Translations under genes and position numbers: made by a program | IMG/VR virus record: IMGVR_UViG_3300028591_000071 | Direction: 5' to 3' (one strand) | Length of the DNA: 64,000 nucleotides | Source: a virus | Lineage: Duplodnaviria > Caudoviricetes | The notes under the pieces: model-generated | Told to the model about the DNA's origin: nothing | The model's input: the letters and a program-made list of their open reading frames with translations, nothing else | Databases searched by the model: none | Shown: positions 45,109 through 63,019 of the stretch, piece by piece | Numbering within the stretch: the first letter of the stretch is position 1 | Layout of the letters: the number at the start of each line of letters is the position of its first letter

Positions 45109-45113
45109 ATATC

Positions 45114-45373: not shown

Positions 45374-45387
45374 TCATATAAGTCTAC

Positions 45388-45483: not shown

Positions 45484-45492
45484 TGAACTGAG

Positions 45493-45565: not shown

Positions 45566-45682
45566 GTAAATAATCCCCCGTTATCGCCGGAGGATATCCC
45601 ACGCTACTTTACCTATAAGTAGTAACTACGAACTCGATAACGGATTAGTCGCCTCCGTCAGGTTTATCATGATTTGCCTGAG

Positions 45683-45753
45683 AGCGGGTAAGCAGAATCG
45701 AACTGCCGTATCCAGAATGGGAATCTGGTGTACTACCACTGTACTATACCCGC
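45683..45753 (-). tRNA. tRNA-Gly(CCC)
   Basis: cloverleaf, U73. Confidence 0.9.
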
Positions 45754-45870
45754 AAAGTGCCTTTTTAGACCAACCCCTGAAGGCTAACAGTGCCAACCTA
45801 CGATTTGGAGGAAAGTAAGCATTCTTGAAGAGGCCTTCCCATCTTCGTTCCCGCTGCAGTCGGGCCAATA

Positions 45871-46165
45871 AAATTGCAGAAAACCCGTTAAAAACTGCAT
45901 TTCCCGAATTTCTTTTTATCCGATTACTCAGATATTATTACCTACGCTCTTGCTGTTCCCCCCGTTACTGAGGGCTTTCGGGTAGTCAGACATCATGTAA
46001 CGCAGTGTCTGACAATGGATTTTGTTTAACACTTTTTCGGTTGAGTGATAACCGTATCGTGCCCGCCAGTATCGCAGCGCGGTCCCCTCGTCCGGTTCCA
46101 ACGGAAGGTTTCTGCTTTCAGGCTAGCACTTACTTGCATAATACCCAAATATTCGCTATGCTTTC
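45871..46165 (-). ncRNA. unknown ~295-nt ncRNA, copy A
   Basis: shares ordered sequence blocks with 47691-47959. Confidence 0.5.
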
Positions 46166-46589
46166 ACGGATTTGCATTAACCGTATGACTGGGGTTTTTG
46201 TATCGCACATCCCCCTAGTGCGTCCGAATCTCACGGAAGCCTTACTATCGCGAATAAAGTCAACTTAAGGCTACTACCAAGGTGACTTGCGGCGCGTGGC
46301 GTCCCATCGTTACTACCGCAATGCGCTTGGTTTATATTCCGCCCTTTTTTGGGAAACCACCGCGTTGAGGAGTCGAACACTCGCCGCTTGGGGATTCGAA
46401 CCACCGCCCAAAGGGACCCTACTACCGTTCGGGATTTTGCTAAATTAAGAGCCATATAAGATTTGCAACTCTTATATGTTGTTACTTGATGTGCTTGTCA
46501 ATCTTTACACCATTTCCCGATAAGAGACCTTGCCCAACCATTTAACCGGTGTCTTTGGGATGGAGGGCTCACCTTCCAGTATCTCTTTT

Positions 46590-46688
46590 GCGAACCTAAG
46601 AGGACTCGAACCTCTCATCTTTGCCTTCGGGCAATGTTTTAACCACTCTCCACAAGGAAATTTCATCCTTGCTTCACCACTATAGGTT
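46590..46688 (-). ncRNA. tRNA mimic without an anticodon
   Basis: GAACCTA/TAGGTTC acceptor, TTGCC CGAA GGCAA, T-arm. Confidence 0.5.
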
Positions 46689-46751
46689 CTGACACCTTCT
46701 TTCCTATGGCCTTTAACGCGTATCATATACCATCATACTTAAAGTTGTTTG

Positions 46752-46913
46752 TGGGCGATAATGGAGTCGAACCATTGACCCCCTGCTTGTGTTGGTAGAT
46801 TACGCTTCGAACGTAAACAACATAAGCGCGTTTTCTCCCGTTCTACCAAAAACCCGTCACAGTGGGTTAATCTGTAGAAGGCAGGTGCTCTGAACCAACT
46901 GAGCTAATCGCCC
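46752..46913 (-). tRNA. tRNA-Val(TAC) with 87-nt intron (46791-46877)
   Basis: removing the insert restores CCTGC CT TAC AA GCAGG. Confidence 0.85.
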
Positions 46914-47090
46914 TAATTCCCGCGTTTGTTGGCCGCGGGAGGCCTCGATAGACGCTTTGCGCGATGGCCCCGTTCATCCCATCATTTATATCGGGGTTTA
47001 GTGTTAACGCAATGCGCTCTTTTAAGTCCCGAAGGACTACCGCATTTACGGTAATGCGGTCAACCAATTAACCACTCTTCGAGTGATATG

Positions 47091-47267
47091 CGGGCACAGT
47101 AGGACTCGAACCTACAACCTACGGATTAGGCATACTATTCAGAATCGAACTGAAATCACTACTGCCACGGCTTCGGGTCCTCGCCATTAGACGATAGTAT
47201 GCTTAAGTTCATTTTCGGCGAACTATTCCTTATACAGTCCGTTGCTCTACCATTGAGCTATGTGCCC
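47091..47267 (-). tRNA. tRNA-Asn(GTT) with 105-nt intron (47129-47233)
   Basis: removing the insert restores ACGGA CT GTT AA TCCGT; G73. Confidence 0.85.
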
Positions 47268-47418
47268 TTGTTAATAAAAAGCCATTTAATCGCCTGTTGG
47301 ATTCAATACTCGGCGGAGCTAACAATACTTTAAGTCACCATAATGAGTTACCTACCAACTTACTCCCGGTAAAATCCGGGGCTTCATTCCTAAAAGCCTA
47401 GACGATTGTGGCTTATTG

Positions 47419-47499
47419 TGGGCTCGGTGGGACTCGAACCCACACCCCCGAAGGGACCAGCTCCTAAGGCTGGCGTGTCTACCATTCCACCACGAGCCC
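47419..47499 (-). tRNA. tRNA-Leu(TAG)
   Basis: cloverleaf, variable arm. Confidence 0.92.
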
Positions 47500-47614
47500 A
47501 TTTTGGCCACGGGGACTTATGACCACGGTCAATTAACCCATCAACTATTGACCTTTCCTACTCATGGGCTGTTGGGCGTCTCCACTTTCGGCGTTTTCTC
47601 TGCGTTCCCCTTTG

Positions 47615-47687
47615 TACTCCTATCGGGAGTCGAACCCGAATCCCCGGACTGAGAATCCGGTCGCCTAAACCATTAGCAGATAGGAGC
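47615..47687 (-). tRNA. tRNA-Glu(CTC)
   Basis: cloverleaf. Confidence 0.88.
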
Positions 47688-47690
47688 ATA

Positions 47691-47959
47691 AATTGCAGAA
47701 ACCCGTAAACTGCCGTATCATTTACCAGTACGAAACCTATTCTGCCATAGGCGATACTTTTATCCGAATCTGTGCAGACCATTGATTCGGAAGGGTCGTT
47801 TTTATAGTTCGTTTACAGGAGTCGAACCTGCACCTCCCGCCTTCGGGCATGCTTCCGCTACACCAAACCGATTTTACGAAGTATCGTCCCTTGATTAACC
47901 CTGCACGGTTATTCTCGGTATTGTCCAACGCCAATTACTCGCATTGTGCAGATGCTTTC
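47691..47959 (-). ncRNA. unknown ~270-nt ncRNA, copy B, with an embedded tRNA mimic
   Basis: shares blocks with copy A; tRNA-like module at about 47806-47871. Confidence 0.5.
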
Positions 47960-47960
47960 G

Positions 47961-48035
47961 TGGAGCGGGTAATCAGAATCGAACTGACATCCCAGGCTTG
48001 GAGGGCCTATGCACTAACCGTTGTGCTATACCCGC
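47961..48035 (-). tRNA. tRNA-Gly(TCC)
   Basis: cloverleaf, CCA encoded. Confidence 0.9.
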
Positions 48036-48176
48036 TTATAAACACATACCCTCAAGGGTTTTGAAATTTAAACTATGTACCCACATCGGGCCCACCTCCG
48101 ATTCTCACGGCGAACTTTTGAGGTTAAGTCACGGGAAGTTATTCCCACCGACATATATGTGTATCTTTTCTTTATG

Positions 48177-48248
48177 AGCCTCTTGACAGAATCGAACTGT
48201 CATCTAGGCGTTACGAATGCCTTATAATAACCGTTATACTAAAGAGGC
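48177..48248 (-). tRNA. tRNA-Thr(CGT)
   Basis: cloverleaf. Confidence 0.87.
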
Positions 48249-48258
48249 GATTCTTTTG

Positions 48259-48331
48259 AGCCGGAGACAGGAGTCGAACCTGCAACCCCCTGATTACAAG
48301 TCAGGTGCTCTACCATTAAAGCTACTCCGGC
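48259..48331 (-). tRNA. tRNA-Thr(TGT)
   Basis: cloverleaf. Confidence 0.92.
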
Positions 48332-48339
48332 AAAATCCC

Positions 48340-48990
48340 ACATATTCTCCGCCCGTGGGGAGGCTCCTTGCACCCCTATTTATTAGTCGCCCGCCATAAT
48401 TGCGACACCATACAGTACTGTTGATAGGTAAAAGTCTGTGGTTCAGTGCCCTTATTACCGCCTTACCCCCTGAATGATTGGAACATTTCTGTCGTGCTGC
48501 CTATACGGGGCTTACGCCCACCTGGGGTACATCATCGAAACGAAATCTTGCGCAAGTTACCATCTAGCGGAAGATGCGGAATATCAGCCCGCCCCAACTA
48601 ATTGGTAATTTCATCTCGTGAACGAACCGGGGAGGATAACTTTCATTTGCAACCCGGCTCTTAGCCCGCCAATCTTTTTACCACAGTAAGAAAAGTGCCA
48701 TACTACATCGCTGCGACTGAGGAACCTCGGCTTCACGAGGATTGCATGACCATTGGGATTTCTCCTTTACATGGTTTTACCACTCTGTTGGCAGGGCGCT
48801 TCAATTGTGGTTTATGAATTATATCCACAATCTCAAGGTTCATGAGCAGCCTGACATTAATTATTCGCGCGGTCAGTTTCATATCTTGGCAGACTTGCGA
48901 TTAAGCAACATTTAAGTATCTCTCCTCGGTCAACCACCAAGTTTCCTCATTACTACTTGGCAAGGTCCTACCCTAAAATAGGACGCGGCA
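48340..48990 (-). ncRNA. candidate ~650-nt large ncRNA
   Basis: no ORF of 60 aa or more starts in the block; GC-richer; embedded in the tRNA operon. Confidence 0.4.
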
Positions 48991-49005
48991 CTTTATAAAT
49001 TTAAC

Positions 49006-49060
49006 AGGAAACGGTTTTCAGAATATTAAAAGTCCTTGAAAAAATTGCTGTCTGTTTCCT
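49006..49060 (-). ncRNA. minimal ACAGCAA RNA with Lys-like loop
   Basis: AGGAAAC/GTTTCCT stem, GACTTTTAAT. Confidence 0.55.
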
Positions 49061-49081
49061 TAATTGTAACTCAATTTCGTG

Positions 49082-49792
49082 TGGCCCAGGCGGGACTCGA
49101 ACCCGCACGGCCCTTTCGGGCCAAGGGATTTTCGTACCACTATAGCTTTCGCTACCAATTAGTCTGTAGTGCTCGCAGTGCGGCAACCTCAGGATTTACA
49201 ATCACAATTCCCGGTGGGAAGATACACCTTCTTATACTAATTGTTTGTGGTCTGGACTGTATCTTAACCATATTGAAATCTTGCAAGATATCTATTGCGG
49301 AAGTTACGGATTCGAACCGCCTATAAGCCATTTCTCCGGTTTCACCAGTGCATACAATACAATAGATAATTTCAACTTAGGTTCCTCCTGTATCTCGTCT
49401 CTACACACTGTCTAAAAATTGCTGCGTTCATTTCCTTAAATTTAACAGCACCCACTCACGGGCTTAAGGCTGCAATTTTATAACATTGGCTCGGTATTGG
49501 CTTGACTCATTAGGCAAGCAACTTTAATGACGTACTCTGCTCTATTTCATCAGAGATATTCAACCTAATAAATTTTAGCTTTCACCGAATTAGGGAGGTT
49601 CTGCATCCAAGGTTTCCCTTGGTGCACTCAAATTTTACTTAATAAGTGAGAAATATCACAGGTTGCGTACCTTATTACGTTGGACTTTCACCAACCTCCT
49701 GCCTAGCTCAACATCCCGTCGAATGCGTATCGCAATATTTCCCTTTAAGTAACGTTAAAGTCCCTTGCGTCTACCAATTCCGCCACTGGGCC
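49082..49792 (-). tRNA. tRNA-Leu(TAA) split by a group I intron
   Basis: exons 49758-49792 and 49082-49132 join as AGGGA CT T^AA AA TCCCT. Confidence 0.9.
49133..49757 (-). mobile_element. group I intron, 625 nt, no convincing ORF
   Basis: 5' exon ends in U, intron ends in G; P AATTCGGTGAAA, Q AATACCGAGC, R GTAGAGAC, S AAGATACAGTCC. Confidence 0.88.
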
Positions 49793-49800
49793 ATTATTTG

Positions 49801-49918
49801 CAACCATGACAGGACTCGAACCTGCGACACGCGGATTATCAGTCAATAAACATTGCTGTAAATTTCCATAACCTGTAAACATAAAAGTACGCCGCTCTAC
49901 CCTCTGAGCTACATGGTC
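49801..49918 (-). ncRNA. tRNA scaffold with ACAGCAA insertion (Lys-like and Ile-like loop remnants)
   Basis: GACCATG/CATGGTT acceptor; insert GGAAATTTACAGCAATG. Confidence 0.6.
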
Positions 49919-49953
49919 ACCGTTAACTTAAAACATAATCCTTCGATTATTTG

Positions 49954-50041
49954 CGGAGAAGGCCGGATTCGAACCGACGGGGCGCTCATCACGCCCGCAT
50001 GTTTTCAAGACATGTGCAATAAACCACTCTGCCACTTCTCC
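49954..50041 (-). tRNA. tRNA-Ser(TGA)
   Basis: cloverleaf, variable arm, G73. Confidence 0.92.
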
Positions 50042-50820
50042 TTATTCATTTTGCGCCCTTTTGACCATCCTTTGTTGAGAAAAATATTGATGTCTTCTTT
50101 TTTGATTTTCTTGTTTTCAACTCCATTGGTTATCCAACAAGTTCCAAATTGGCTATTCTTTTCTCCTGATTGGTCATTATTAGCTTTATGTGTTTTTGAC
50201 ATTTTATCTTTTGTCTCTTGAGTGTGCTTCCTACCCCTCCAAAAAGGAATTAAATCACCATTAATGTATCGTTCATCATCAAAAGAAACTCTAGTGGCCA
50301 TCCCGTTTTTATCCTTAACAATGATGGTCCCATTACACACATGTATGTATTTATCATTATTGGACGAATAATCTTCTTTTTCAACCAATTTAAAAGAACA
50401 TGATTGTTTATCATAAACAGGAACCATTCCTTTTGAAACTGGTATTAGTTCTCCGCTTTCTAATCTCTTGTCATTCGGCAAAACTCTCAAGAATTTTGAA
50501 CTATAATCCTTAACTAAAATTGTTCCAACTGTTGTTCCAAAATCTCCGCCAATCTTCATATTATAACAATTTTCATCAAGAACACAAGATTCTGTAACCA
50601 TTTCGGATTCATATTCTGACGCAAGTTCTCGGCTTTTAAAATATTTTATGATTGTTTTTACGAAATTTTCTTTTCCGTAAATTTTATAATCACGATTCAA
50701 ATTCTTTCCAGAACCCATATACCCATCGTCAAGATTATTGGTAGAATGAATGCCGTAATAATATTTTCCGTTAATGATGTTTTCTATTCTATAGAAATAA
50801 TGATACTTATACTTTCCCAT
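50005..50820 (-). CDS. GIY-YIG (Seg-like) homing endonuclease with NUMOD3
   Basis: YFYRI.N.INGKYYYGIH...YMGSG; GRKHTQETK; its 3' end runs into tRNA-Ser. Confidence 0.85.
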   Translation of the reverse strand: MGKYKYHYFYRIENIINGKYYYGIHSTNNLDDGYMGSGKNLNRDYKIYGKENFVKTIIKYFKSRELASEYESEMVTESCVLDENCYNMKIGGDFGTTVGTILVKDYSSKFLRVLPNDKRLESGELIPVSKGMVPVYDKQSCSFKLVEKEDYSSNNDKYIHVCNGTIIVKDKNGMATRVSFDDERYINGDLIPFWRGRKHTQETKDKMSKTHKANNDQSGEKNSQFGTCWITNGVENKKIKKEDINIFLNKGWSKGRKMNKEKWQSGLLHMS

Positions 50821-50879
50821 ATGTTCGAATTACTATATATAAATAGTATCGAACAGGTGAAAAGTCAAATATTTTTTTG

Positions 50880-50963
50880 CGGAAGCCTGAGGTGTCGAGC
50901 CCCATGCCATGTGGCACGCATCGCTTTCGAGGCGAGCCAAGAAGCCGTTCTTGTTAGACTTCC
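50880..50963 (-). tRNA. tRNA-Ser(CGA) with a tRNA-Sec-like 8/5 body
   Basis: 8-bp acceptor, 6-bp D stem with 4-nt loop, variable arm, G73. Confidence 0.7.
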
Positions 50964-51209
50964 GTTTTATCCGCATTCCATATCACATTTCGTGCAGATT
51001 ATAATAGTTTCACAATATGTCAAAGACCTTCAAGTGTTTATGCAAATATACATAGTTTGTTTTGCAAAAACAAATGTTTTTAATCACTTTTTGTCTATTT
51101 ATCTTAAGTAGACATATCTCGGGGTCGGGATTAAACAAGGAATTTCGCTACCTTATTAACGGACCGTGAGTAGAGGGATGGGAGTGATGAACCTGTCCCT
51201 CGTTTTTTG

Positions 51210-51284
51210 TTGCGTAGGTGAGATTTGAACTCACGACCCCGAGGATATGAATCTCGTGCTCTACAACCACTGAGCTACTACGCA
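51210..51284 (-). tRNA. tRNA-Met/Ile2(CAT)
   Basis: cloverleaf. Confidence 0.85.
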
Positions 51285-51300
51285 ATATTCAAAGAACTTT

Positions 51301-51380
51301 TGGCATATAGACAGGACTCGAACCTGCGTGGGCTGTTCCTACCCGAACCCGACATATGTGTGCACTTACATCCTATATGC
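51301..51380 (-). ncRNA. tRNA-like RNA with aberrant D and anticodon arms
   Basis: GCATATAG/CTATATGC stem, then CA, T-arm present. Confidence 0.45.
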
Positions 51381-51384
51381 TTTG

Positions 51385-51460
51385 TGGTCTGCCTGAGACT
51401 CGAACTCAGAACCTCCTGTGTATCAGACAGGTGCTCTCAAACCAATTGAGCTAACAGACC
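51385..51460 (-). tRNA. tRNA-Ile(GAT)
   Basis: cloverleaf. Confidence 0.9.
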
Positions 51461-51465
51461 ATATT

Positions 51466-51540
51466 TGGAGCGGGTAAGCAGAATCGAACTGCCATCCCCA
51501 GCATGGCAAGCTGGTGCACTAACCGTTGTGCTATACCCGC
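51466..51540 (-). tRNA. tRNA-Gly(GCC)
   Basis: cloverleaf, CCA encoded. Confidence 0.92.
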
Positions 51541-51545
51541 ATATT

Positions 51546-51845
51546 TCAATAGACATCCGTCTCAATCACAAACCTCTTCTCCCTCTTTCCTCTGAACGGG
51601 CCGTCTTTGGTGTGTACCGTTTCAATTCCATAGAGAATGCTTCCCTTGAAAATCCACCCGTACTCATACATTTCGCCCGTTATATCAACGGAGTGAAAAG
51701 AATCTTCGCCTTCAAGACGCTTTTGTCCTTCAATGCAATCGTCAATGAACTTCTTTGCCTTATCAAGGCTGTCAAATGTCTCAATGCCGTTCTGATGGTG
51801 GCCATCCCCATCAAGGCTTTGAATGATAACTGTGTAAATTTTCAT
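51546..51845 (-). CDS. hypothetical protein
   Basis: ORF on the array strand. Confidence 0.55.
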   Translation of the reverse strand: MKIYTVIIQSLDGDGHHQNGIETFDSLDKAKKFIDDCIEGQKRLEGEDSFHSVDITGEMYEYGWIFKGSILYGIETVHTKDGPFRGKREKRFVIETDVY

Positions 51846-51857
51846 ATCTTCAAAATT

Positions 51858-52145
51858 TTAACGGCTCATTCTCTTTTCCTGCCATTCCAAGAACTCGGAG
51901 AATAAAACTATTTTCCTTACAACGTCCCCGACGCTTCTCAGAATAAACAATTCGATGAAGTCTTCGTCAAACTCGTCGTACTGCGGCTCCCACTCAGCAT
52001 CACGAAAATGCAGTTTCGCACCAACTAACTCGTCCCATAATGATTCCCACTGTTTTGTTCTCTTCAAATACAATTCGAACATTACATAAAGAAAGTGTGC
52101 GTCCTCCATCCTTTCGGACCATTTTTCTTTTTCAGTCTTTTCCAT
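51858..52145 (-). CDS. hypothetical protein
   Basis: follows the sigma54-like motif near 52178. Confidence 0.55.
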   Translation of the reverse strand: MEKTEKEKWSERMEDAHFLYVMFELYLKRTKQWESLWDELVGAKLHFRDAEWEPQYDEFDEDFIELFILRSVGDVVRKIVLFSEFLEWQEKRMSR

Positions 52146-52199
52146 TTCCAAAATTTTCAAATTCCGATATATTATCTACAAATATCGTACCAAACTTTG

Positions 52200-52358
52200 T
52201 GGGAGCGGGAGGACTCGAACCTCCGAAGGCCGAAGCCGAGGGATTGTGGGTATAGGAATGTACGATACTCCGAAACTTCCTTTATTTATACCCAATCAAT
52301 TTGTACAGTTTTATTCTGTTATTACAGTCCCTTGCAATTGCCACTATGCGACGCTCCC
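52200..52358 (-). tRNA. tRNA-Tyr(GTA) with 77-nt intron (52246-52322)
   Basis: removing the insert restores AGGGA CT GTA AA TCCCT; Tyr variable arm. Confidence 0.85.
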
Positions 52359-52375
52359 ATATATTATTCTATTTT

Positions 52376-52693
52376 TTACCCTTCATTAACTCTCTTAATC
52401 TTCTTCTTCAATTCTTCAATATCCTTCTTAATCTCGTCAATAAGGTCTTCGTCAGCACCTTCTTCGTGAAGCATGCTAAGTACCTTGCTGAGACCGAGAA
52501 ATTCACCCTTCAATATCTCCTCAACCTCCCCGTCGGAAGATACCATCTCGTTATTCATCAGTCGCTCGATATCGCGTTTCTTATCCTCGAACGCCGCCCT
52601 CATCTTATGAAGTTCATGTATCTTCGCCTCCTTGTAGGCAGCATAACACCCTGCCACCATGCAAATCAAAAATCCTATCAATATCCAAATCAT
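52376..52693 (-). CDS. membrane-anchored coiled-coil protein
   Basis: N-terminal TM. Confidence 0.6.
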   Translation of the reverse strand: MIWILIGFLICMVAGCYAAYKEAKIHELHKMRAAFEDKKRDIERLMNNEMVSSDGEVEEILKGEFLGLSKVLSMLHEEGADEDLIDEIKKDIEELKKKIKRVNEG

Positions 52694-52696
52694 AAT

Positions 52697-53488
52697 TTAA
52701 TAATTCAATTTTATTCTTTCAAGTTCACTGTCGTCCATCACCCTTATCGCCGAACTTGGTATCGGTTCAAACGTAAAGATAGAATTTTTCCATCTTGCAT
52801 CAAAGAAGAACGACTGCTTCTTGTTTAACTTATTTAAATCAACTTCCACCACAACCGGCGGAGCGTTATCACCTTTCATTAAGTTCAGGTCATATGCTTG
52901 TTCCTTGGACGGGATATCTGCCCTGAAATAAATCCTCGGCTCATTATCAAACCCGGGTGTCTTTGATTTCTTCGGCACTAACCCCTGACCCAATATTTTT
53001 TTCTTCAGTCTTGACGATGTTACGTGATAAATCTTATCTGTCATATTGAGAAGTTGCCCAACAGTAAACCTGTCACCAAACTTCTTTTCAAACATATATT
53101 CAATATTATCGCCATTGCCATCTGTTCTGTAATTAAACCAACCATATTTCAGCATATGTGCGTTTATCTTGTCAAACAACTCGCTTCCCCTTGGTAATGT
53201 AACCACTATAATTTCGCCAGTCCCGTTTGGCTTTGATATCCTTATATTGCCGTTCGGTTCATTTTCCTTTCCTCGCATAGAATCAATCGTATCCTTCCAT
53301 TTCCCGTTTATCGAAAGCCCGTTATGCTCTGCTATGGAATCTATAACCGATTCTGTCGGGTAGGTAGTTATTAACCCTTCTTTTATCAGCAATGGCCTTT
53401 TTTCAACCATCACATCGAAAAGAGTGTGGGATGTTACATTCTCCCCTATTCTCTCCATAAGGGAAAGTATTTTGTATAACTCATCCAT
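52697..53488 (-). CDS. ADP-ribosyltransferase/Tpt1-fold protein
   Basis: IYHVTS..IL.QGL.P..RIYF..VEVD..FTFEPIP..AI. Confidence 0.55.
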   Translation of the reverse strand: MDELYKILSLMERIGENVTSHTLFDVMVEKRPLLIKEGLITTYPTESVIDSIAEHNGLSINGKWKDTIDSMRGKENEPNGNIRISKPNGTGEIIVVTLPRGSELFDKINAHMLKYGWFNYRTDGNGDNIEYMFEKKFGDRFTVGQLLNMTDKIYHVTSSRLKKKILGQGLVPKKSKTPGFDNEPRIYFRADIPSKEQAYDLNLMKGDNAPPVVVEVDLNKLNKKQSFFFDARWKNSIFTFEPIPSSAIRVMDDSELERIKLNY

Positions 53489-53501
53489 TTCCTATAATTT
53501 G

Positions 53502-53573
53502 TAGCCCCAATGCGACTCGAACGCATATTGTAGGTTTAGGAAACCTAAGTTCTATCCCTTGAACTATGGGACC
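53502..53573 (-). tRNA. tRNA-Arg(CCT)
   Basis: cloverleaf, A20. Confidence 0.88.
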
Positions 53574-53676
53574 ATATCATTCAGCAACAGTTTACACTTA
53601 GCTTATCGGCAACGCCCTTCTCCTGTCCGGGACTTACTCGCCTTGCGTGTCGTTAATACGCATATCGCTGAATTTG

Positions 53677-53751
53677 AGCCCTCGGTCGGATTCGAACCAA
53701 CACCTCTGCCATACCACAGCAGCGTACTCAGCCATTAAATACTACGAGGGC
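53677..53751 (-). tRNA. tRNA-Thr(GGT)
   Basis: cloverleaf. Confidence 0.82.
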
Positions 53752-53757
53752 TTCTCG

Positions 53758-53828
53758 TTGAAGGCAGAGGAATCGAACCTCTATTCTGGGAACCAAAATC
53801 CCATGTCTTACCTTTAGACGAGCCTTCA
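53758..53828 (-). tRNA. tRNA-Gln(TTG)
   Basis: cloverleaf. Confidence 0.9.
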
Positions 53829-53837
53829 ATACCTTGC

Positions 53838-53957
53838 AGGAATAGCGGGATTCGAGCCCGCGAGTGGTGATTAACTCCACATCCTTCCGTCAGCATGACA
53901 TCTGAGCCTTTATGCGCAATATTATGCTCAGCCGCTATTATATCTATCCCTTATTCC
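53838..53957 (-). ncRNA. degenerate tRNA-like RNA
   Basis: GGAATA/TATTCC stem, T-arm and variable hairpin; 5' half aberrant. Confidence 0.35.
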
Positions 53958-54001
53958 AACGGATTCCAACCGTATATCGGTAATCACTTCCGATATTAGC
54001 G

Positions 54002-54075
54002 TACCTCGGATGCGATTCGAACGCATGACCTACAGATTAGAAGTCTGTTGCACTATCCAGCTGCGCTACCGAGGC
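54002..54075 (-). tRNA. tRNA-Arg(TCT)
   Basis: cloverleaf. Confidence 0.92.
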
Positions 54076-54080
54076 ATAAA

Positions 54081-54510
54081 TAACCTATTATGTGCTTTTA
54101 CGCTTAATGCTCCAACGGCGGTTTCACAGACATTCCAGTGAATCAATTAACCTAGCGTTGATTCCGCGCCCATCATCCTCATGAATGGTACGCCATGGCT
54201 ATCGAGTAGCCACTTAAGGTTAAGTGCTCGTTCCTCCCGTACTGGGGCACCTTATCTGTCTTACCTGTCTCCGACTCCCATAATATCCTTCACGAAACCG
54301 AGGAACGGCGGGCATTTCAGCCCGTCCTTTAAAACGGCCCATCCGGTATTGGTGCTTATGACTCCGTGCGGCGTCGCATGGCGTGTAGGTTCACTACCAT
54401 ACTGTGTTCTTGAGACCACCACTATTCGCCGCGTGTACCTGTCGGCATAGTCTCTTCCGCTCGCAACTCCTTAGCTGATGGCTGCTTCCAAGCCTACAGT
54501 TAATAGGTTA
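54081..54510 (-). ncRNA. 430-nt RNA mimicking 23S rRNA H43/H44 (L11-binding GTPase centre)
   Basis: 10-bp closing stem; GTAGGCTTGGAAGCAGCCATCAGCTAAGGAGT ... AAGCGTAAAAGCACAT. Confidence 0.7.
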
Positions 54511-54572
54511 TAAAATATTTCAATGAACTTCTTTTTATACTTCAAATATCGTGCCAACACACACAAATTTTG

Positions 54573-54647
54573 TGGCCCCGACGGGACTCGAACCCGTAAC
54601 CCACTGTTTAAGAGACAGTTGCGCTCAACCAATTGCGCCACAAGGCC
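54573..54647 (-). tRNA. tRNA-Lys(CTT)
   Basis: cloverleaf. Confidence 0.9.
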
Positions 54648-54654
54648 ATATTTG

Positions 54655-54775
54655 TTGATGGCTACGGATTCGAACCGCCCCCCGTTCTCCATAAGAAATA
54701 GCGAATAAATTGCTGTCTGTTTCCATGTCTGTAAACGGTTTTTGCATTCGTGTGCTACCACTACACTAACCATCA
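54655..54775 (-). ncRNA. tRNA scaffold with ACAGCAA insertion
   Basis: TGATGGT/GCCATCA acceptor; insert GGAAACAGACAGCAATTT. Confidence 0.6.
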
Positions 54776-54787
54776 AATTTCAAGTCG

Positions 54788-54916
54788 TTGCGAGTGAAAG
54801 AGTCGAACTTCCCCTAGTCCCTTATGATGGAGTTTTTGCTTGTAAAATTTGCTGTATAATCTCCTACTCGGAAATCGGATGCATTTTTTACCGTGCTACC
54901 GCTACACTAACTCGCA
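54788..54916 (-). ncRNA. tRNA scaffold with ACAGCAA insertion
   Basis: TGCGAGT/ACTCGCA acceptor; GATTTCC..GGAGATT then ATACAGCAAATTT. Confidence 0.6.
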
Positions 54917-54926
54917 ATATTTTTTG

Positions 54927-55000
54927 TACCCTCGAAGGGACTCGAACCCCCAACCTCTTGGTTCGTAGCCAAGTGCTCTAATCCATTGAGCTACGAGAGC
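54927..55000 (-). tRNA. tRNA-Arg(ACG)
   Basis: cloverleaf. Confidence 0.92.
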
Positions 55001-55096
55001 ATTTTGACAGGCGAAGCTAACCTGTCCACGGATTCCCTACAGGCGCCCGGGTTCCGCAATGGAGATGTTCACGCCCCTTCATCATCCAATTAAAGC

Positions 55097-55420
55097 TTAC
55101 TTTTTCATTTTCCTATAATATTCATCGTCAATCCTTTCGATATAATCCAACGGTGATTCCCCTTCCTTGAGGGTGTGAATCTTGTCAAATCCCGCATCTT
55201 CTGTTATCATCGACTCTTCAGGTCTGATGCTTCCCTTGTACTTCCCGTAGTTGGATGTCTCAAATGACTTTGTCGCAGGATTGTAATCTCCCCAACTTGT
55301 CTTTTCCTTTCCATCTATGGGTTCAACAAAATAAGTCTTTCCCGTTTTCGACGACTTGACGATGAATCTTCCTGTATCATCTCGGTTCATTAAGAACCGC
55401 TTTGTAAAATCTTTATCCAT
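55097..55420 (-). CDS. conserved hypothetical protein
   Basis: TGRF.V.S.KTGK.YFVEPI, WGD.NPAT motifs. Confidence 0.65.
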   Translation of the reverse strand: MDKDFTKRFLMNRDDTGRFIVKSSKTGKTYFVEPIDGKEKTSWGDYNPATKSFETSNYGKYKGSIRPEESMITEDAGFDKIHTLKEGESPLDYIERIDDEYYRKMKK

Positions 55421-55422
55421 AG

Positions 55423-55597
55423 TGACCCCTGCGGGGCTCGAACCCGCGACCCCGACATTAGAACCGTTAACGGGACTTGCACCCGTGCCTCACCTGTTTC
55501 CCAAGTGTTTCCCACTGCTCGAATTCTAACGGTTTGGTTCGTTACGGTGAACCACTCCTTATAAAGTGTCGTGCTCTACCAACTGAGCTAAGAGGTC
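55423..55597 (-). tRNA. tRNA-Lys(TTT) with 102-nt intron (55461-55562)
   Basis: removing the insert restores CGACA CT TTT AA TGTCG. Confidence 0.85.
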
Positions 55598-55602
55598 TTT
55601 CC

Positions 55603-56298
55603 TTATTTTTTAATACCGTATCTTTTTATCCACTTATCAACTGTATGGTACGAAACCCCAAAAATTTTAGCAATCTTATTAACAGATTCTGTTTCCATCA
55701 TTTCCAATAAATCTTTCTTCTGCGGGGGCTCTATCTTCCTCTGTTTTTTTCTAGCACAAGAAGCACAAAGACCGCTTTTTGACCACCTACTGATTTCTTT
55801 ACCACACTCAGTACATTTTTTAGTTGTTTTCTTTTTGATTTTTTTACCTCTATAATTTTCTGTTTTTGCGTGGCAATTTGGACAAAGTAGCGCTAGGTTT
55901 GATAAATCGTTATTGAAATGGTTTCCATCTTTATGGTGCAATTCTAATGGTATCTTGTCGCCCATCCATTCCGTATTTTTACAGCACTCACACTTCCATT
56001 CCTTTAAATTTTCCTTTATTAATTTTCCTAATAAAGTAGAACTTTTAACATAAGAATTTTTAACATATTCATCAAAAGTTTTTTCTTTGTTGGTGTTCAA
56101 ACGATTACCAATGTTACTTTTGATGCCATCAAAATGTGAAGTGTCTAGGTTATATTCCTTTTCATATTTATGAAAAATCTTATAATTGTCACCTCTCGGA
56201 ACCCACCCAACTGCACGACAAAAATCAGCAATTGACTTACATTTCTTTACTATCTCCGTTGCTTCTTCTTTACTTATCTTGTTTTTCCTCGCATACAT
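55603..56298 (-). CDS. HNH homing endonuclease
   Basis: CECC..W....LELHHKDGN..NN...L..LCPNCH; C-terminal HTH. Confidence 0.85.
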   Translation of the reverse strand: MYARKNKISKEEATEIVKKCKSIADFCRAVGWVPRGDNYKIFHKYEKEYNLDTSHFDGIKSNIGNRLNTNKEKTFDEYVKNSYVKSSTLLGKLIKENLKEWKCECCKNTEWMGDKIPLELHHKDGNHFNNDLSNLALLCPNCHAKTENYRGKKIKKKTTKKCTECGKEISRWSKSGLCASCARKKQRKIEPPQKKDLLEMMETESVNKIAKIFGVSYHTVDKWIKRYGIKK

Positions 56299-56373
56299 AA
56301 CTACATATATTTTATATATAAATAGTTGTTTTAAACCAAAAAGTAAACATTTTTATTTCAAAGAACTATTTTG

Positions 56374-56445
56374 TGCTCCCATCCAGACTCGAACTGGAAC
56401 CCCTGGATTAAAAGTCCAGTTGACTAACCTTTATCCTATGAGAGC
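56374..56445 (-). tRNA. tRNA-Lys(TTT), intronless
   Basis: cloverleaf. Confidence 0.8.
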
Positions 56446-56719
56446 TTTACCGACACCATATAATGGTTTAATTTAATTACCTATAGCCAAATGGTGTCTA
56501 TTTGTTGGCTCTCACATTTAAGAGTCAACTATTAATGCTTTTGTTTACCGTGTTTCATCGTCTTCATATATCTTAATAAATTTGTTTTCGCACTACTGCT
56601 TCTGTTAAAGATGAAGTCAGCAAGATTCTTTGCAAATATACGAACTTATTTTCAAATTCCAAAATATCTACTTTTCTTTAGATATTCGTCAATTATCTAA
56701 TATATGCTCGATAATTTTG

Positions 56720-56792
56720 TGGTGCGGGGCAGAGTTGAACTGCCGACACTTAGATTTTCAGTCTAATGCTCTACCAGCTGAGCTACCGCACC
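56720..56792 (-). tRNA. tRNA-Phe(GAA)
   Basis: cloverleaf. Confidence 0.92.
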
Positions 56793-56797
56793 ATATT

Positions 56798-56983
56798 TCA
56801 TTCTTGGAACGGGGTCTTTTGACCCTTCATATACGCCCTGTAATACAACCTTTGTGTGCCCGTGATATTTTCATACCACTCGTCAAAGTATTTGTAATAC
56901 TTTTTTAATACATTGTACCTAAATTCGTTCCAAAGGTACTCTTTCAATAAATCGTTATGCCCCGCTTTCCATATTACTATCAT
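56798..56983 (-). CDS. hypothetical protein
   Basis: fills the gap between two tRNAs on the same strand. Confidence 0.5.
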   Translation of the reverse strand: MIVIWKAGHNDLLKEYLWNEFRYNVLKKYYKYFDEWYENITGTQRLYYRAYMKGQKTPFQE

Positions 56984-56994
56984 TTATAAATTTG

Positions 56995-57068
56995 AGTATG
57001 TGGCAGGATTCGAACCTGCGAATGGAGGGGTTGCGGCCCTCTGCGTTAGACCACTTCACCACACATAC
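56995..57068 (-). tRNA. tRNA-Cys(GCA)
   Basis: cloverleaf, U73. Confidence 0.88.
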
Positions 57069-57086
57069 ATATTTCAATGAACTAAA

Positions 57087-57161
57087 TGGCAGGAGTAGAA
57101 AGACTCGAACTCTCATCAAAGGTTTTGGAGACCCTTATGCTAACCATTACACCATACTCCT
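57087..57161 (-). tRNA. tRNA-Trp(CCA)
   Basis: cloverleaf, G73, CCA encoded. Confidence 0.92.
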
Positions 57162-57166
57162 ATTTG

Positions 57167-57242
57167 CGGGGACAACCGGTTTCGAACCGATGCCTTCTGC
57201 TCTTCAGGCAGACGCGCAACCACCAACCTACGCAATATCCCC
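57167..57242 (-). tRNA. tRNA-Phe(GAA), atypical second copy
   Basis: cloverleaf with G37 and G73. Confidence 0.7.
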
Positions 57243-57250
57243 AATTTTGC

Positions 57251-57325
57251 TTGTGGTGGATGAATCGAACATCCGTCTCCATGTGTCTTTCGACTAAGCG
57301 TCCTGTACCACTAGACGACCCACAA
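57251..57325 (-). pseudogene. degenerate tRNA-like element
   Basis: D and T arms present; anticodon arm replaced by GTC GAAA GAC. Confidence 0.35.
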
Positions 57326-57365
57326 GTTTTGACAGTTTTTGGCATGCCACTGACAAACCGACAGG

Positions 57366-57442
57366 TACTGGGGACGGGACTCGAACCCGCATTTACCGAC
57401 TTGAAAGGCCGATTACCTCAATCCAATTAGTAGACCCCAGCA
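57366..57442 (-). tRNA. tRNA-Glu(TTC), second copy
   Basis: cloverleaf. Confidence 0.8.
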
Positions 57443-57628
57443 TTTTATATTTCAATCAACTCTTCAAAAACCATGCCAAACTAAAAACTGGTCCCTACCA
57501 TTCGCCAGTGGTCATTGCAGGCCAACTCTTGTTCCCAGAGTGCATTGCAGCACTAACATATCTTTGCAGACTTTTCGGGACCTGTTTATTACGGTTCTTA
57601 TATATCAAATATCGTGCCAAACTTAAAA

Positions 57629-57676
57629 TAAAAAAACCTCTGATTTTGTTTTTGATTGGGAAACTTGTCAGAGGTT
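57629..57676 (-). terminator. attenuator-like terminator upstream of the tRNA array
   Basis: AACCTCTGA/TCAGAGGTT stem followed by a T-tract. Confidence 0.6.
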
Positions 57677-57733
57677 GGGAATATGTTGTGGTTAGAAACC
57701 TATGTGGTGCGTTTTAATCGTCCTGCTACTCGC

Positions 57734-57865
57734 TCAACTATTCCGCCTCTGCAAAAAGGGCTTTTCAATTCTACCTTCTGATGCTACGAGACATGCCCAA
57801 CCGCGATAGTTTTTATCACTATCGTGCCTTTGGGTAAAGATATTTGTAAACTGCATCGAAGTCAT
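57734..57865 (-). CDS. 43-aa leader peptide containing all 20 amino acids
   Basis: MTSMQFTNIFTQRHDSDKNYRGWACLVASEGRIEKPFLQRRNS*. Confidence 0.55.
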   Translation of the reverse strand: MTSMQFTNIFTQRHDSDKNYRGWACLVASEGRIEKPFLQRRNS

Positions 57866-57969
57866 AAGTCCTCTTTGTTATTATTTTAGATTTCTGCTTT
57901 TAATTCACATATAAATATAACATTTTCGAGAAAAAATTACTTTTTTACCTCAAAAATGTTAAAAATTTG

Positions 57970-58470
57970 TGCCAGATTCGGGATTCGAACCCGAGAAGCC
58001 CCACATGTGGGGGTCGTACTCCGTAGGGTTCCGTGGTTACCACGGGCCTTCGCGTCGCTCCGACATAATAAAGACAAAAGAACAGGACTCCTGACTACCT
58101 GCAAATCCTAATCCAAAGCGCGTTATTCAGCCACACTCACAACCGTTAGCTACTCGATTGCTTAACGAGTGGGAGGAATGCTTACCTCCAAGCGGATACA
58201 GCCATCATGAGCCTACTACGATTTGTCCGCTTCTTACGACCCTCACGGTTGGCCAACCGTGGGTGTTTCAGCCTTACGCTTCTTCAGACCTCTAACCGCC
58301 CCCGCCGCTTTTCAGCGGACGGATGTGTACCTTACGGGCAGGCTACCCGTTGTTCGGTCATCTTCGTCTTTATTGTAGTTACAAAGAACTCCCGTGATGT
58401 TTAGCGTCCACCACGACGACGGAATCCTAAACCACTTGGTGATATTTAAAGTCGCTACCAAGACGACTTG
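57970..58470 (-). ncRNA. candidate ~500-nt ncRNA ending in a tRNA-like T-arm
   Basis: GC-rich hairpins; 3' end TCGGG TTCGAAT CCCGA ATCTGGCA. Confidence 0.45.
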
Positions 58471-58537
58471 TCTAATGGTAAATTTGCCTTCTTTTCTATA
58501 AATATATATTAACTTTTACTAAAAATCAAATATTTTT

Positions 58538-58753
58538 TCACTTTTTTTCATATAATTCATCAATTTTCTGCAAAATTTCGCCCAAATATGCAGAAATTTC
58601 TGCCCCGCCATCAAGAAGAATTTCTTTTGCTTCGTCAATATTTTCCTTCTCAATAGCCTTTTTAGCATTGTATTCCATTTTGTCAATAACCACGCTTGCA
58701 CAGGCAAGTCGGTCGCCTGCAAGATTCTTAATCGTTAAAATTCTCTCATCCAT
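58538..58753 (-). CDS. hypothetical protein
   Basis: ORF after the suppressor tRNA. Confidence 0.5.
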   Translation of the reverse strand: MDERILTIKNLAGDRLACASVVIDKMEYNAKKAIEKENIDEAKEILLDGGAEISAYLGEILQKIDELYEKK

Positions 58754-58772
58754 AATATATTCTAAAAATTTG

Positions 58773-58845
58773 TGGTACATACAGGACTTGAACCCGTGCT
58801 TATCGGTTTTAGAGACCGTCGTGCAAACCGCTACACCAATGTACC
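58773..58845 (-). tRNA. amber suppressor tRNA (CTA)
   Basis: GGTACAT/ATGTACC acceptor, CGGT CT CTA AA ACCG, T-arm. Confidence 0.85.
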
Positions 58846-61414: not shown

Positions 61415-63019
61415 TTATAGGCCCACACTTAGTGGATATTTTACTGAAGGATAAGACCTATAGCCTTCAATTTTAATGTCCTCATACTTGAAATTATCTA
61501 TTTCCTTTATATCAGGGTTAAGCAATAGCGTTGGTAACGGGTACATATGAGGATTATTATCCTTCTGAGAACGCGTATATTCTTCAATCTGATTCTCATA
61601 GACATGTACATCTCCGCCATTGAATATAAGTTCATCCACATCCATGTTTACACAATGTGCAATGATATGAGTTAAAATGCTATAACTCAATATGTTGAAC
61701 GGGAGCCCGAGCAGGCTGTCAACCGACCTTTGATTCCACATACAGCTCAACTTTCTCGTAGGGACACCCGCATTGTCAAATATCTTACTGCTCCTTTCCT
61801 CATCATCAGGATACCAAACGACAGAACCGTCGGCGTAGTTGTCAACAACATACTGTTCCCTTTCCTTGAAAGTCATCTTCTTGGTATAGAACTGACAGCA
61901 GTAATGGCAAGGAGGAAGAGCCATATCCTTAATCTCACCAACATTCCACGCACTAAGCATAATACGCCTATCGTCAGGATTGTTGCGAAGCTTTTCAATA
62001 ACTTCCTTCACTTGGTCAACACCACCAAAGTTACGCCACTGCTTTCCATAGACGGGGCCGAGGTCTCCATATTTATAATATGTATAGCCTTCATCATTTA
62101 TCCTAAATCCGTGATGGAAATTCAACGGGTCTTTCACCTTTTCCAAGAACTCCTCTTTATTAAGAGGATTATCAATTTTAATTTCAACGCCCGTTGGGTC
62201 AACTATCTTGTATTTCTTCATCAATTCAAGATAATATCTATATGCATCATCATCCCAAATATGGACTCCGTTGTCTACGAGGTACTTAATATTGGTATCA
62301 CCCTTCAGAAACCAAAGTAGTTCATGGATGACACCCTTCGCAAACATCTTCTTCGTGGTAAGCATAGGAAGTCCTTCCTTAAGGTTGAACCTCATCTGCA
62401 CGCCGAAGATAGAACGGGTTTTTCCTGCACGAGTGTCTTTCTCCGCCCCATCGCTAATAATCCTATTCACAAGGTCAAGATATTGCGAATCAACATTGTT
62501 GTTTCTTCCTCGCATCTTAACAAACTGCATGGCATAGGCCTTCTTCGGCTCAATCTCCACGGGTCTTCCAATTTCTTCCCAACAATTGTCAGTTACGATG
62601 TCTCGCGGGAAAAATGTGTCTGCATCCTTAGCATCCTCAGAAAGCATGTCAATATAAATCCTATCGACAAGGTCATTTGACAGGGCATAATTATAGATGC
62701 TTGCTCCGCCGATGATGAAAACCTCTTCATCAAGTGTTTTTGCAAAATTTATTGCCCCTTCAAGATTGTCATAGACACGGATTCCGCTATTTTCTGTCCA
62801 AAGGTCTTTTCTTGTGCTTACAATGATGTTCGTCCTGTTCTTAAGCGGATGCCCTATCGCTTCGTAGGTCTTCCTTCCCATAATAACAGGATGGCCCGTA
62901 GTGGTGTCTTTGAACCACTTCAGGTCAGCCTTATTATTCCATGGCATCGCGCCGTTTTTACCCATCGGAAACCCTTTATTTACGATATAGTTTCCAACAG
63001 CGACAATGATGTTTACCAT
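61415..63019 (-). CDS. thyA: bifunctional dihydrofolate reductase-thymidylate synthase
   Basis: N-terminal MPW..DLKWFK..MGRKT, IGGA; C-terminal TTKK, ELLWF, PVYG.QWR, LPPCH, QRS.D..LG.PFN, HVYEN. Confidence 0.93.
   Translation of the reverse strand: MVNIIVAVGNYIVNKGFPMGKNGAMPWNNKADLKWFKDTTTGHPVIMGRKTYEAIGHPLKNRTNIIVSTRKDLWTENSGIRVYDNLEGAINFAKTLDEEVFIIGGASIYNYALSNDLVDRIYIDMLSEDAKDADTFFPRDIVTDNCWEEIGRPVEIEPKKAYAMQFVKMRGRNNNVDSQYLDLVNRIISDGAEKDTRAGKTRSIFGVQMRFNLKEGLPMLTTKKMFAKGVIHELLWFLKGDTNIKYLVDNGVHIWDDDAYRYYLELMKKYKIVDPTGVEIKIDNPLNKEEFLEKVKDPLNFHHGFRINDEGYTYYKYGDLGPVYGKQWRNFGGVDQVKEVIEKLRNNPDDRRIMLSAWNVGEIKDMALPPCHYCCQFYTKKMTFKEREQYVVDNYADGSVVWYPDDEERSSKIFDNAGVPTRKLSCMWNQRSVDSLLGLPFNILSYSILTHIIAHCVNMDVDELIFNGGDVHVYENQIEEYTRSQKDNNPHMYPLPTLLLNPDIKEIDNFKYEDIKIEGYRSYPSVKYPLSVGL

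Follow-up and report, generated by a model that had tools for sequence, protein, structure and literature searches.

GOLLD and ROOL are located near transfer RNA (tRNA) genes in phages, ROOL being of rumen origin; phage tRNA arrays and RNA-repair systems counter host ribotoxins; and phage RNA-based anti-CRISPRs imitate CRISPR RNA (crRNA) repeats. To our knowledge, neither GOLLD nor ROOL contains modules derived from ribosomal RNA (rRNA). A full-text literature search, with few subscription journals covered and supplements outside its scope, found no description of a phage RNA copying either of two functional centres of 23S rRNA: the GTPase-associated centre (GAC) and the sarcin-ricin loop (SRL). 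The sequence analyzed here, hereafter the window, was the whole 64,000-nt stretch of DNA from IMG/VR virus record IMGVR_UViG_3300028591_000071 (Duplodnaviria; Caudoviricetes). An RNA gene of ~438 nt was located at 54076–54513 on its minus strand between tRNA-Lys and tRNA-Arg, and the ends of this RNA reproduced the 23S domain composed of the top of helix 42 (H42), H43, and H44. It is taken here as a true non-coding RNA gene with a defined structure, carried by a giant phage of the rumen.

Sequence comparison with 23S rRNA

The RNA displayed the order P1–H43-like hairpin–junction strand–insert–H44-like hairpin–P1. The part from 54510 to 54081 (minus strand) started with UAACCUAUUA and finished with UAAUAGGUUA. 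The terminal stem P1 was 11 bp in length, with ATAACCTATTA (54511–54501) pairing with TAATAGGTTAT (54090–54080), and inside it were found CUGUAGGCUUGGAAGCAGCCAUCAGCUAAGGAGU at the 5′ end and AAGCGUAAAAGCACAU at the 3′ end. The H43-like string (54499–54466) and the H44-like string (54105–54090) were separated by an insert of ~358 nt (54465–54108), integrated between the equivalents of E. coli positions 1090 and 1091 and turning the H42/H43/H44 three-way junction into a four-way one. The components of the GAC fold were all recognized: a closing stem resembling H42, an H43 stem of two segments capped by a 7-nt loop, and an H44 hairpin whose loop has 6 nt. Compared to the E. coli 23S gene (L212), the RNA was identical at 26/35 positions in the H43 plus junction part, where two of the mismatches formed a compensatory C-G pair, and at 13/16 in the H44 part, over AAGCGUAAAAGCACAU; L150, a more typical member of the family, was identical at 30/35 in the H43 plus junction part.

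The sequence comparison was also applied to real 23S genes, which were retrieved with a string from a family member and gave 49 full-length loci. The profile hidden Markov model of the family matched the H43 region in 49/49 of them (best E 2.8e-11) and the SRL in 43/49, single E-values for the SRL being weak (0.5–2.2); in the rest of the profile, no region matched more than 3 of the 49 loci. The Rfam large-subunit (LSU) rRNA model RF02541 matched member L149 at model positions 1094–1147 only (23.8 bits and E 6e-4, the gathering score being 50), and neither the gathering threshold nor E ≤ 10 yielded a match to it in the window, which places the window RNA outside LSU rRNA. Rfam 15 contained no family for the window RNA even at E ≤ 10.

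A sequence-only reading of this stretch had proposed a phage RNA mimicking the GAC, and the strings quoted in it were all present on the minus strand. Its perfect terminal stem was retained, with 11 bp instead of 10; its split of the domain by about 350 nt of hairpin-rich sequence corresponded to the ~358-nt insert, which additionally held an SRL-like hairpin; and the absence of other rRNA nearby agreed with the Rfam gathering scan of the window, which returned only tRNA and transfer-messenger RNA (tmRNA). The Rfam search and LSU alignment that it had suggested found no Rfam family and confined identity to H43/H44 and the SRL. The proposed mimicry itself came out stronger than claimed: because the profile matched real 23S genes (49/49), the LSU model matched L149, and the stems covaried in 23 homologues, the likeness to rRNA was taken as more than chance, and the RNA carries a near-copy of the 23S L11-binding domain. 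The role that this reading also proposed, a decoy or scaffold for L11, RelA, or ribosome-targeting toxins, stays hypothetical and is complicated by the alternative pairing of the SRL-like loop, by variation at the 1067 and 2660 equivalents, and by cultured-phage relatives reduced to the GAC frame.

The equivalents of U1060, G1071, C1072, A1088, G1091, C1092, G1099, and C1100, which we take to be bases of the tertiary fold of the L11-binding domain, were invariant in 23/23 aligned members, with 1071/1072 and 1092/1099/1100 being fixed by at least one search pattern. GAGU in the junction strand CUAAGGAGU, whose positions were outside every search pattern, was likewise invariant in 23/23. The 1067 equivalent was G in 12/23 (including the window) and A in 11/23, and the exposed loop positions 1095–1097 also varied.

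Covariation and secondary structure

Single-sequence folding energy was not unusual (z −1.18, 12/100 shuffles folding as well), and the structure was therefore derived from covariation. RNAalifold with 19 sequences predicted 40 pairs, 28 of which had compensatory changes. An all-against-all covariation scan suffered from noise where variable regions aligned poorly, and some of the long-range pairs returned by RNAalifold under ribosum scoring were spurious; a conservative core was therefore fixed by hand, comprising 46 pairs distributed over 10 helices: P1, the two H43 segments, P3, P4, P6, the UGAAAU hairpin, P8, the SRL stem plus C-G pair, and H44. Pairing in the core was counted across 23 distinct sequences, using a MAFFT alignment that took no account of these pairs. 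In this alignment, 92.4% of the cells of the core were paired, compared to 68.5% in shuffles (0/500 shuffles reaching the observed value) and 31–48% with partners slid, and 35/46 core pairs changed on both sides. The second P6 pair, for example, was G-C in 10 and C-G in 9 sequences. In this alignment, the search patterns account for some of the invariance seen in the SRL and in portions of H43/H44. The structural parts are listed in Table 1.

Table 1. Coordinates of the RNA, its structural parts, and the adjoining features in the window
Feature	Position	Strand	Evidence or remark
Whole RNA, 438 nt	54076..54513	−	Bounds from the RNA contig read as a circle; 3′ end 54076 abuts the 5′ end of tRNA-Arg (54075)
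Upstream tRNA-Lys (CUU)	54572..54647	−	Rfam/ARAGORN; same strand as RNA
Downstream tRNA-Arg (UCU)	54001..54075	−	Its 5′ end sets the 3′ end of the RNA
Motif GTTCATTGAAA	54518..54528	−	5 nt upstream of the RNA 5′ end
Other GTTCATTGAAA copies	57072–57082, 57450–57460, 56356–56366	−	≤1 mismatch
P1, 5′ strand, in place of the top of 23S H42	54501..54511	−	All 10 P1 pairs compensatory across 23 sequences
P1, 3′ strand	54080..54090	−	Pairing with 54501–54511; covariation
H43-like hairpin, two stem segments plus UUGGAAGC loop	54475..54499	−	Profile match to real 23S; helix 2 96.9% paired
Junction strand CUAAGGAGU (E. coli 1082–1090)	54466..54474	−	Alignment to 23S
P3, 5′ strand, base of the inserted domain	54463..54465	−	Pairs with 54108–54110; helix 3 100% paired, 3/3 compensatory
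P3, 3′ strand	54108..54110	−	Pairs with 54463–54465
P4, 5′ strand, enclosing the variable two-hairpin subdomain	54457..54460	−	Pairs with 54368–54371; helix 4 94.3% paired
P6, 5′ strand ACGG	54364..54367	−	Pairs with CCGU 54115–54118; helix 5
Hairpin with conserved UGAAAU loop, long-form subfamily	54310..54323	−	Helix 6; 4/4 pairs compensatory among the 13 sequences having it
Pseudoknot/masking strand CGUUCCUC	54300..54307	−	Complementary to 54229–54236; ≥6 bp in 21/23
P8, 5′ strand, closing the SRL subdomain	54254..54259	−	Pairs with 54126–54131; helix 7, 5/6 compensatory
SRL-like hairpin	54223..54251	−	5-bp covarying stem around CAGUACGGGAGGAACG; helix 8 100% paired, 4/5 compensatory
H44-like hairpin GC-GUAAAA-GC	54094..54103	−	13/16 identical to E. 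coli over AAGCGUAAAAGCACAU

SRL-like hairpin and competing pairings

The insert carried the SRL-like string CAGUACGGGAGGAACG (54244–54229) in a hairpin, 13/16 identical to the E. coli SRL, with tetraloop GGGA compared to GAGA in 23S. It contained the sequence elements of an SRL, i.e., the bulged-G motif AGUA...GGA(A/C), the C-G pair, and a GNRA tetraloop within a hairpin, in the form AGUAC-GGGA-GGAAC. The A2660 equivalent was A in 15/23 and G in 8/23 sequences. It is very unlikely that a conserved 12–13-mer identical to the SRL would be located by accident in a hairpin of an RNA that also carries a GAC copy.

The bases of the non-canonical SRL pairs were invariant across the alignment, while a competing 6–8-bp pairing with an upstream strand covaried. 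Two such pairings were distinguished: (i) set B, in which the 3′ half of the SRL-like loop (GAGGAACG, 54236–54229) was complementary to CGUUCCUC (54307–54300), the two strands changing in step with 15 distinct variants of the four variable bases, and at least 6 contiguous bp being formed in 21/23 sequences (27/29 with six added members), compared to 25% when strands of different sequences were combined (480 combinations) and 10% in shuffles; and (ii) set A, in which, in short forms, a second stretch of the same mid loop formed 9–10 bp with AGUACG and the adjoining upper part of the SRL stem, covarying and reaching at least 8 bp in 13/29 sequences, and being absent from long forms including the window. 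Because of their order, these pairings made up a pseudoknot instead of one helix. They may correspond to masked and exposed alternative states, to one static pseudoknotted fold, or to contacts between molecules.

Expression and ends of the RNA

The window stretch was present in 20 public runs, six of which were RNA libraries from sheep and cattle gut, and four metatranscriptomes from three studies were compared as Logan contigs. The RNA was present in these RNA libraries and was assembled as a separate contig in each of the four: (i) a 431-nt contig in X19 (54084–54514), (ii) a 402-nt contig in X2 (54098–54499) with a depth of 205 compared to 2–20 in flanking contigs, (iii) a 391-nt contig in X20, and (iv) a 468-nt contig in X18; such contigs do not show levels or true ends, and RNA libraries can hold DNA. 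The whole RNA including the insert was contained in the RNA contigs, and there was no sign of excision. Parts of the window stretch were without RNA contig cover.

The X18 contig was composed of 438 + 30 nt with the same 30 bases at both ends, joining 54513 to 54076, and it was read as a closed 438-nt cycle because an assembler with k = 31 gives cycles that form. X19 and X20 additionally had variant contigs running from the 5′ end into 3′-end sequence. These assembled RNA contigs indicate that the RNA is probably covalently circular; a tandem copy would give the same junction. Position 54076 immediately precedes the mature 5′ end of tRNA-Arg, the place where RNase P would cut, and since the RNA abuts this tRNA, its 3′ end would be cut by RNase P. 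Processing would leave a 5′-phosphate and a 3′-hydroxyl held by P1, a substrate for ATP-dependent RNA ligases, and the RNA would accumulate as a stable, probably circular species of ~438 nt with its ends kept together by P1.

Distribution of the family

The family contained about 30 distinct phage and metagenome sequences. L164 and L166 (identical to L161) and L157 and L162 (near-identical to the window and L158, respectively) were dropped before counts. A two-motif pattern (H43 core, gap of 218–248, SRL core) found 16 metagenome and 5 viral loci, 20/21 of which were members aligning over the whole length, and it found 0 loci in one genome each of 185,579 prokaryote species; L148 fitted the pattern, had no further likeness to the family, and was dropped. 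SRL plus H44 patterns found 12 viral loci, all with E ≤ 1e-23 against the family profile, six of them being new with variant H43 loops. H43 plus H44 (GAC-only) patterns found 18 viral loci, i.e., 11 distinct sequences: four with an exact SRL core, five with a near one (tetraloop GAAA, AGAA, or CAGC, or a changed bulged-G strand), and two with other inserts without an SRL-like hairpin. Three pattern matches in prokaryote genomes had no further similarity and no tRNAs and were rejected as chance, and scans with 15-mers likewise gave mostly chance matches (5/146 loci real, from 3 contigs). The 185,579 species genomes contained one true member, with two same-strand tRNAs nearby; its contig of 11.8 kb was binned in an archaeal metagenome-assembled genome and is probably of phage origin.

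Neither the window copy nor L316 had a blastn match in 50,697 cultured-phage records, and matches to such records were obtained with the consensus-like L150 and then with the copy of Cronobacter phage GAP32, the latter matching 49 records. Twenty-seven of the 49 were phage genomes of at least 86 kb, among them Cronobacter GAP32, Xanthomonas XbC2, XaC1, and XacN1, Erwinia Kaldavass and six pEa_SNUABM phages, Pectobacterium CBB, Serratia BF, Yersinia fHe-Yen9-03 and -04, Acinetobacter ME3, Pseudomonas pf16, Aeromonas 4_4572, and Paenibacillus Pd_22F. The remaining 22 were short records or Salmonella contigs, and they were taken as real 23S rRNA because several were annotated as 23S rRNA under the match.

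The copies in GAP32, pf16, and XacN1 shared the P1 stem, H43, junction strand, insert, and H44, lay in unannotated gaps of 253–361 nt, corresponded to RNAs of ~190–250 nt without the SRL hairpin, and had no Rfam match. The pf16 RNA was located between tRNA-Asn and tRNA-Pro. The XacN1 RNA (L324, 1494–1733) was directly downstream of a gene annotated as 2′-5′ RNA ligase (830–1480), a neighbourhood that may connect the RNA functionally with the healing or sealing of RNA ends. Because the cultured-phage copies kept the GAC frame and not the SRL hairpin, the GAC frame was recognized as the constant feature of a superfamily, in which the window RNA is, by alignment, a long form whose insert carries an SRL-like hairpin.

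Genomic setting

Same-strand tRNAs were found in 11/11 loci with 2–6-kb flanks: 5–28 tRNAs in ten, and one abutting tRNA in L288. In 7/11 of these context loci (the window plus ten relatives), no more than 5 nt separated P1 from a tRNA on one or both sides, which fits release by tRNA-processing enzymes. Two other non-coding RNAs adjoined members: a DUF3800-VII RNA (RF02967, 49.5 bits; L151, 119–205) and a tmRNA fragment (L163, 756–844).

In the window, ARAGORN placed the RNA gene in an array of 34 tRNA genes plus tmRNA (41053–58845), all in the same orientation as the RNA, and the Rfam gathering scan gave 38 tRNA matches and one tmRNA match and found no rRNA gene in the window. An RNA-repair/tRNA-maturation cluster was located at 399–17450 on the plus strand, composed of a metallophosphoesterase, three RNA-ligase-domain proteins (1558–5210), DUF932, a Pnkp-like HD plus P-loop kinase (8010–9164), a CCA-adding/poly(A) polymerase-family enzyme (12920–14236), and RlaP (16068–17450). 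A coding reading of the RNA region, namely open reading frames (ORFs) 54181–54447 (plus strand) and 54474–54776 (minus strand), was rejected: these ORFs overlap the RNA and a tRNA, and the family shows 1–2-nt indels there.

The motif GTTCATTGAAA (≤1 mismatch) preceded the RNA, tRNA-Cys, and tRNA-Glu, at a distance of 4–9 nt from their 5′ ends. The window contained 6 matches compared to 3.3 expected, a count not significant alone, and it is their placement that is notable; similar motifs preceded several family members (L147, L152, L154, L159, and L165). GTTCATTGAAA could be a phage promoter or processing signal.

Other features of the array and its surroundings were as follows. The tmRNA (41698–42066, minus strand) encoded the tag GNYAYAFAA. 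Small ORFs were scattered in the tRNA array, several of them homing-endonuclease-like: GIY-YIG (50008–50820), DUF559 (42742–43548), and a helix-turn-helix protein (55606–56298). Five Rfam tRNA matches on the minus strand were 117–177 nt long (42077–42193, 46752–46913, 47091–47267, 49801–49918, and 55423–55597), and the large insertions in these genes are presumably introns; in the last one, RNA contigs of two runs connected 55453 to 55571 with omission of 117 nt, a joint that could be due to splicing or to intron-less relatives. A tRNA with a CUA anticodon (TAG suppressor), labelled tRNA-Pyl by ARAGORN, was located at 58772–58845 (minus strand), and CUA and UUA suppressor tRNAs were also found in relatives L294, L295, and L299; these tRNAs hint at stop-codon recoding late in infection. 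The window additionally encoded Hsp70/DnaK (25114–27012), YqeY (GatB-like; 28078–28584), a fused DHFR-thymidylate synthase (61418–63019), ClpP protease (63026–63775), and NAD-dependent DNA ligase (38422–40443).

Possible function

A GAC copy, often accompanied by an SRL copy, on a stable RNA expressed with tRNAs, tmRNA, and RNA-repair enzymes points to interference with something that recognizes the factor-binding site of the 50S subunit. The reading that we favour, at a confidence somewhat short of even, is that the RNA is a stable mimic or decoy of this site. It would act in trans, its partner being L11 of the host and/or a protein that normally recognizes this site, for example RelA, a translational GTPase, or a host toxin that inactivates ribosomes, and such binding would spare or re-programme host ribosomes during infection; the covarying pseudoknot would mask the SRL-like loop, which suggests two conformations. 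EF-G reportedly binds isolated SRL and thiostrepton-domain oligonucleotides. Toxins acting on the corresponding rRNA sites have been described: according to PMC8661411, Tre23 ADP-ribosylates H44 at 1095–1098 and reduces EF-G GTPase activity, and VapC20 and VapC26 cleave 23S rRNA, the VapC20 cut being placed in the SRL by the title of a paper cited there. The summary of one preprint gives the SRL as the target of Tre23, in conflict with that primary paper.

Several observations weigh against the mimic or decoy reading. The main evidence against a simple SRL mimic is that the covarying pairing of the 3′ half of the SRL-like loop is incompatible with the SRL fold. In searches without the SRL constraint, some members had GAAA, AGAA, or CAGC as tetraloop, and the SRL-like hairpin was missing from 2/11 distinct sequences of the GAC-only scans and from the cultured-phage versions read, these relatives keeping only the GAC frame. 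The positions contacted by factors and drugs (1067 and 2660 equivalents) vary, and the invariance of the SRL and parts of H43/H44 owes something to the patterns used to collect the sequences. L11 and EF-Tu-type GTPases were each encoded by 0/5 carrier phage genomes, and the partner would thus be a host protein or an unrecognized phage protein; among RNA ligases, L11, and GTPases, no consistent co-occurring partner was found in carrier genomes. RNA ligases were not universal in carriers (PF09414 in 2/8 and RtcB in 1/5), and circularization may thus be confined to some carriers or depend on enzymes of the host. The circle itself was read from assembled contigs and not from raw reads.

Four other explanations were considered. 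The GAC may serve as an L11 handle or a stable folding unit only, with the variable insert doing the real job, perhaps multimer self-assembly; this is unlikely; in its favour are the facts that the GAC frame is the sole constant of the superfamily with differing inserts, that the complementarities between mid loop and SRL hairpin covary (13/29 and 27/29) in an order that is pseudoknotted or intermolecular, and that GOLLD and ROOL are reported to form homo-oligomers (PMC12286853). Such a scaffold gives no account of why 12–13 nt of the insert copy the SRL, with which the GAC is functionally paired in the ribosome, and no Rfam GOLLD or ROOL match was found. The same complementarities could instead make the RNA a conformational switch or sensor with SRL-exposed and pseudoknot-masked states, in which factor binding would free the other strand for downstream action. 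We consider this quite unlikely: three-way covariation (the SRL stem 100% paired, set B in 21/23 compared to 25% of non-self pairings, and set A of 9–10 bp in short forms) speaks for it, but no target for the freed strand was identified, set A is missing from long forms including the window, and the pseudoknot may be part of one static fold.

RelA activation requires L11. With the L11-binding domain as its constant module and its location inside a large tRNA array, the RNA might therefore titrate L11 or RelA, so that uncharged tRNA from the 34-tRNA array would trigger no synthesis of guanosine tetraphosphate (ppGpp). We give this purely inferential proposal little chance; a decoy would not remove L11 already on ribosomes. 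That the RNA is a non-functional relic of host 23S rRNA or a chance resemblance has next to no probability: the unexceptional single-sequence folding energy (z −1.18) would fit it, but ~30 diverged homologues keep the fold via compensatory changes, so that covariation already contradicts it, and the RNA forms its own high-depth contigs in RNA libraries and is kept in cultured phages of several host genera; chance pattern matches in 596 Gb of prokaryote DNA were without such further similarity.

The decoy reading has a bolder version, which we regard as rather improbable: a circular "ribosome-in-pieces", in which the GAC and SRL copies with host L11 would bind GTPases or RelA or absorb toxins off the ribosome, the pseudoknot exposing the SRL in the active state only. 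In that case, the GAC-frame superfamily would add a level, so far unseen, to the control that phages exert on translation in their hosts. If the mimic or decoy reading is true, large phages carry trans-acting RNAs copying a functional centre of the ribosome, which would establish both a novel class of non-coding RNA in phages and a novel kind of host mimicry. Function aside, the family is a well-supported one of large structured RNAs (190–440 nt) outside Rfam 15, and cultured phages of the jumbo and T4-like types (pf16, the GAP32 group, and XacN1) carry members that lack annotation and can be tested at the bench at once. It also offers a candidate natural circular RNA made from a tRNA array and a natural variation series on the domain binding L11, thiostrepton, and EF-G, and it bears on why phages combine tRNA arrays, tmRNA, and RNA-repair genes.

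Comparison with known systems

The leaders of ribosomal protein (r-protein) genes, such as those of the L10 and L1/L11 operons, shared with the phage RNA the principle of an RNA off the ribosome copying an rRNA protein-binding site. They are short cis-acting mRNA elements upstream of bacterial r-protein genes with loose rRNA resemblance, whereas the phage RNA was located in tRNA arrays; it was flanked by tRNAs, with no r-protein domain in the 58 window ORFs scanned and no L11 in the five carriers, and it had no match to the r-protein leader families of Rfam. GOLLD and ROOL shared with the phage RNA its large size, its setting beside tRNAs in phages, and the lack of an assigned function, and ROOL also its rumen origin; no model of GOLLD, ROOL, or other Rfam large RNAs matched, the only matches being tRNA, tmRNA, and the one DUF3800-VII RNA in a flank. 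Phage RNA-repair systems and anti-CRISPR RNAs likewise involved a phage RNA replacing or imitating a host or defence RNA, and the window also carried ligases, a Pnkp-like kinase, and a CCA-adding enzyme; what the phage RNA would imitate is a functional centre in the ribosome.

Compared to 23S rRNA, the phage RNA was free-standing (190–440 nt), with a stem of unconstrained sequence standing in for H42, a large domain integrated between 1090 and 1091, variation at 1067, 1095–1097, and 2660, a competing pseudoknot partner for its SRL-like loop, and no match to any other rRNA region. What it shared with 23S rRNA was confined to two modules: (i) from the GAC (H42–H44, E. coli 1051–1108), the H43/H44 and junction sequences (26–30/35 and 13/16), the two-part H43 stem, and the H44 hairpin and (ii) from the SRL (H95), the core AGUACG-R-GAGGA of the phage RNA in a hairpin closed by a covarying stem.

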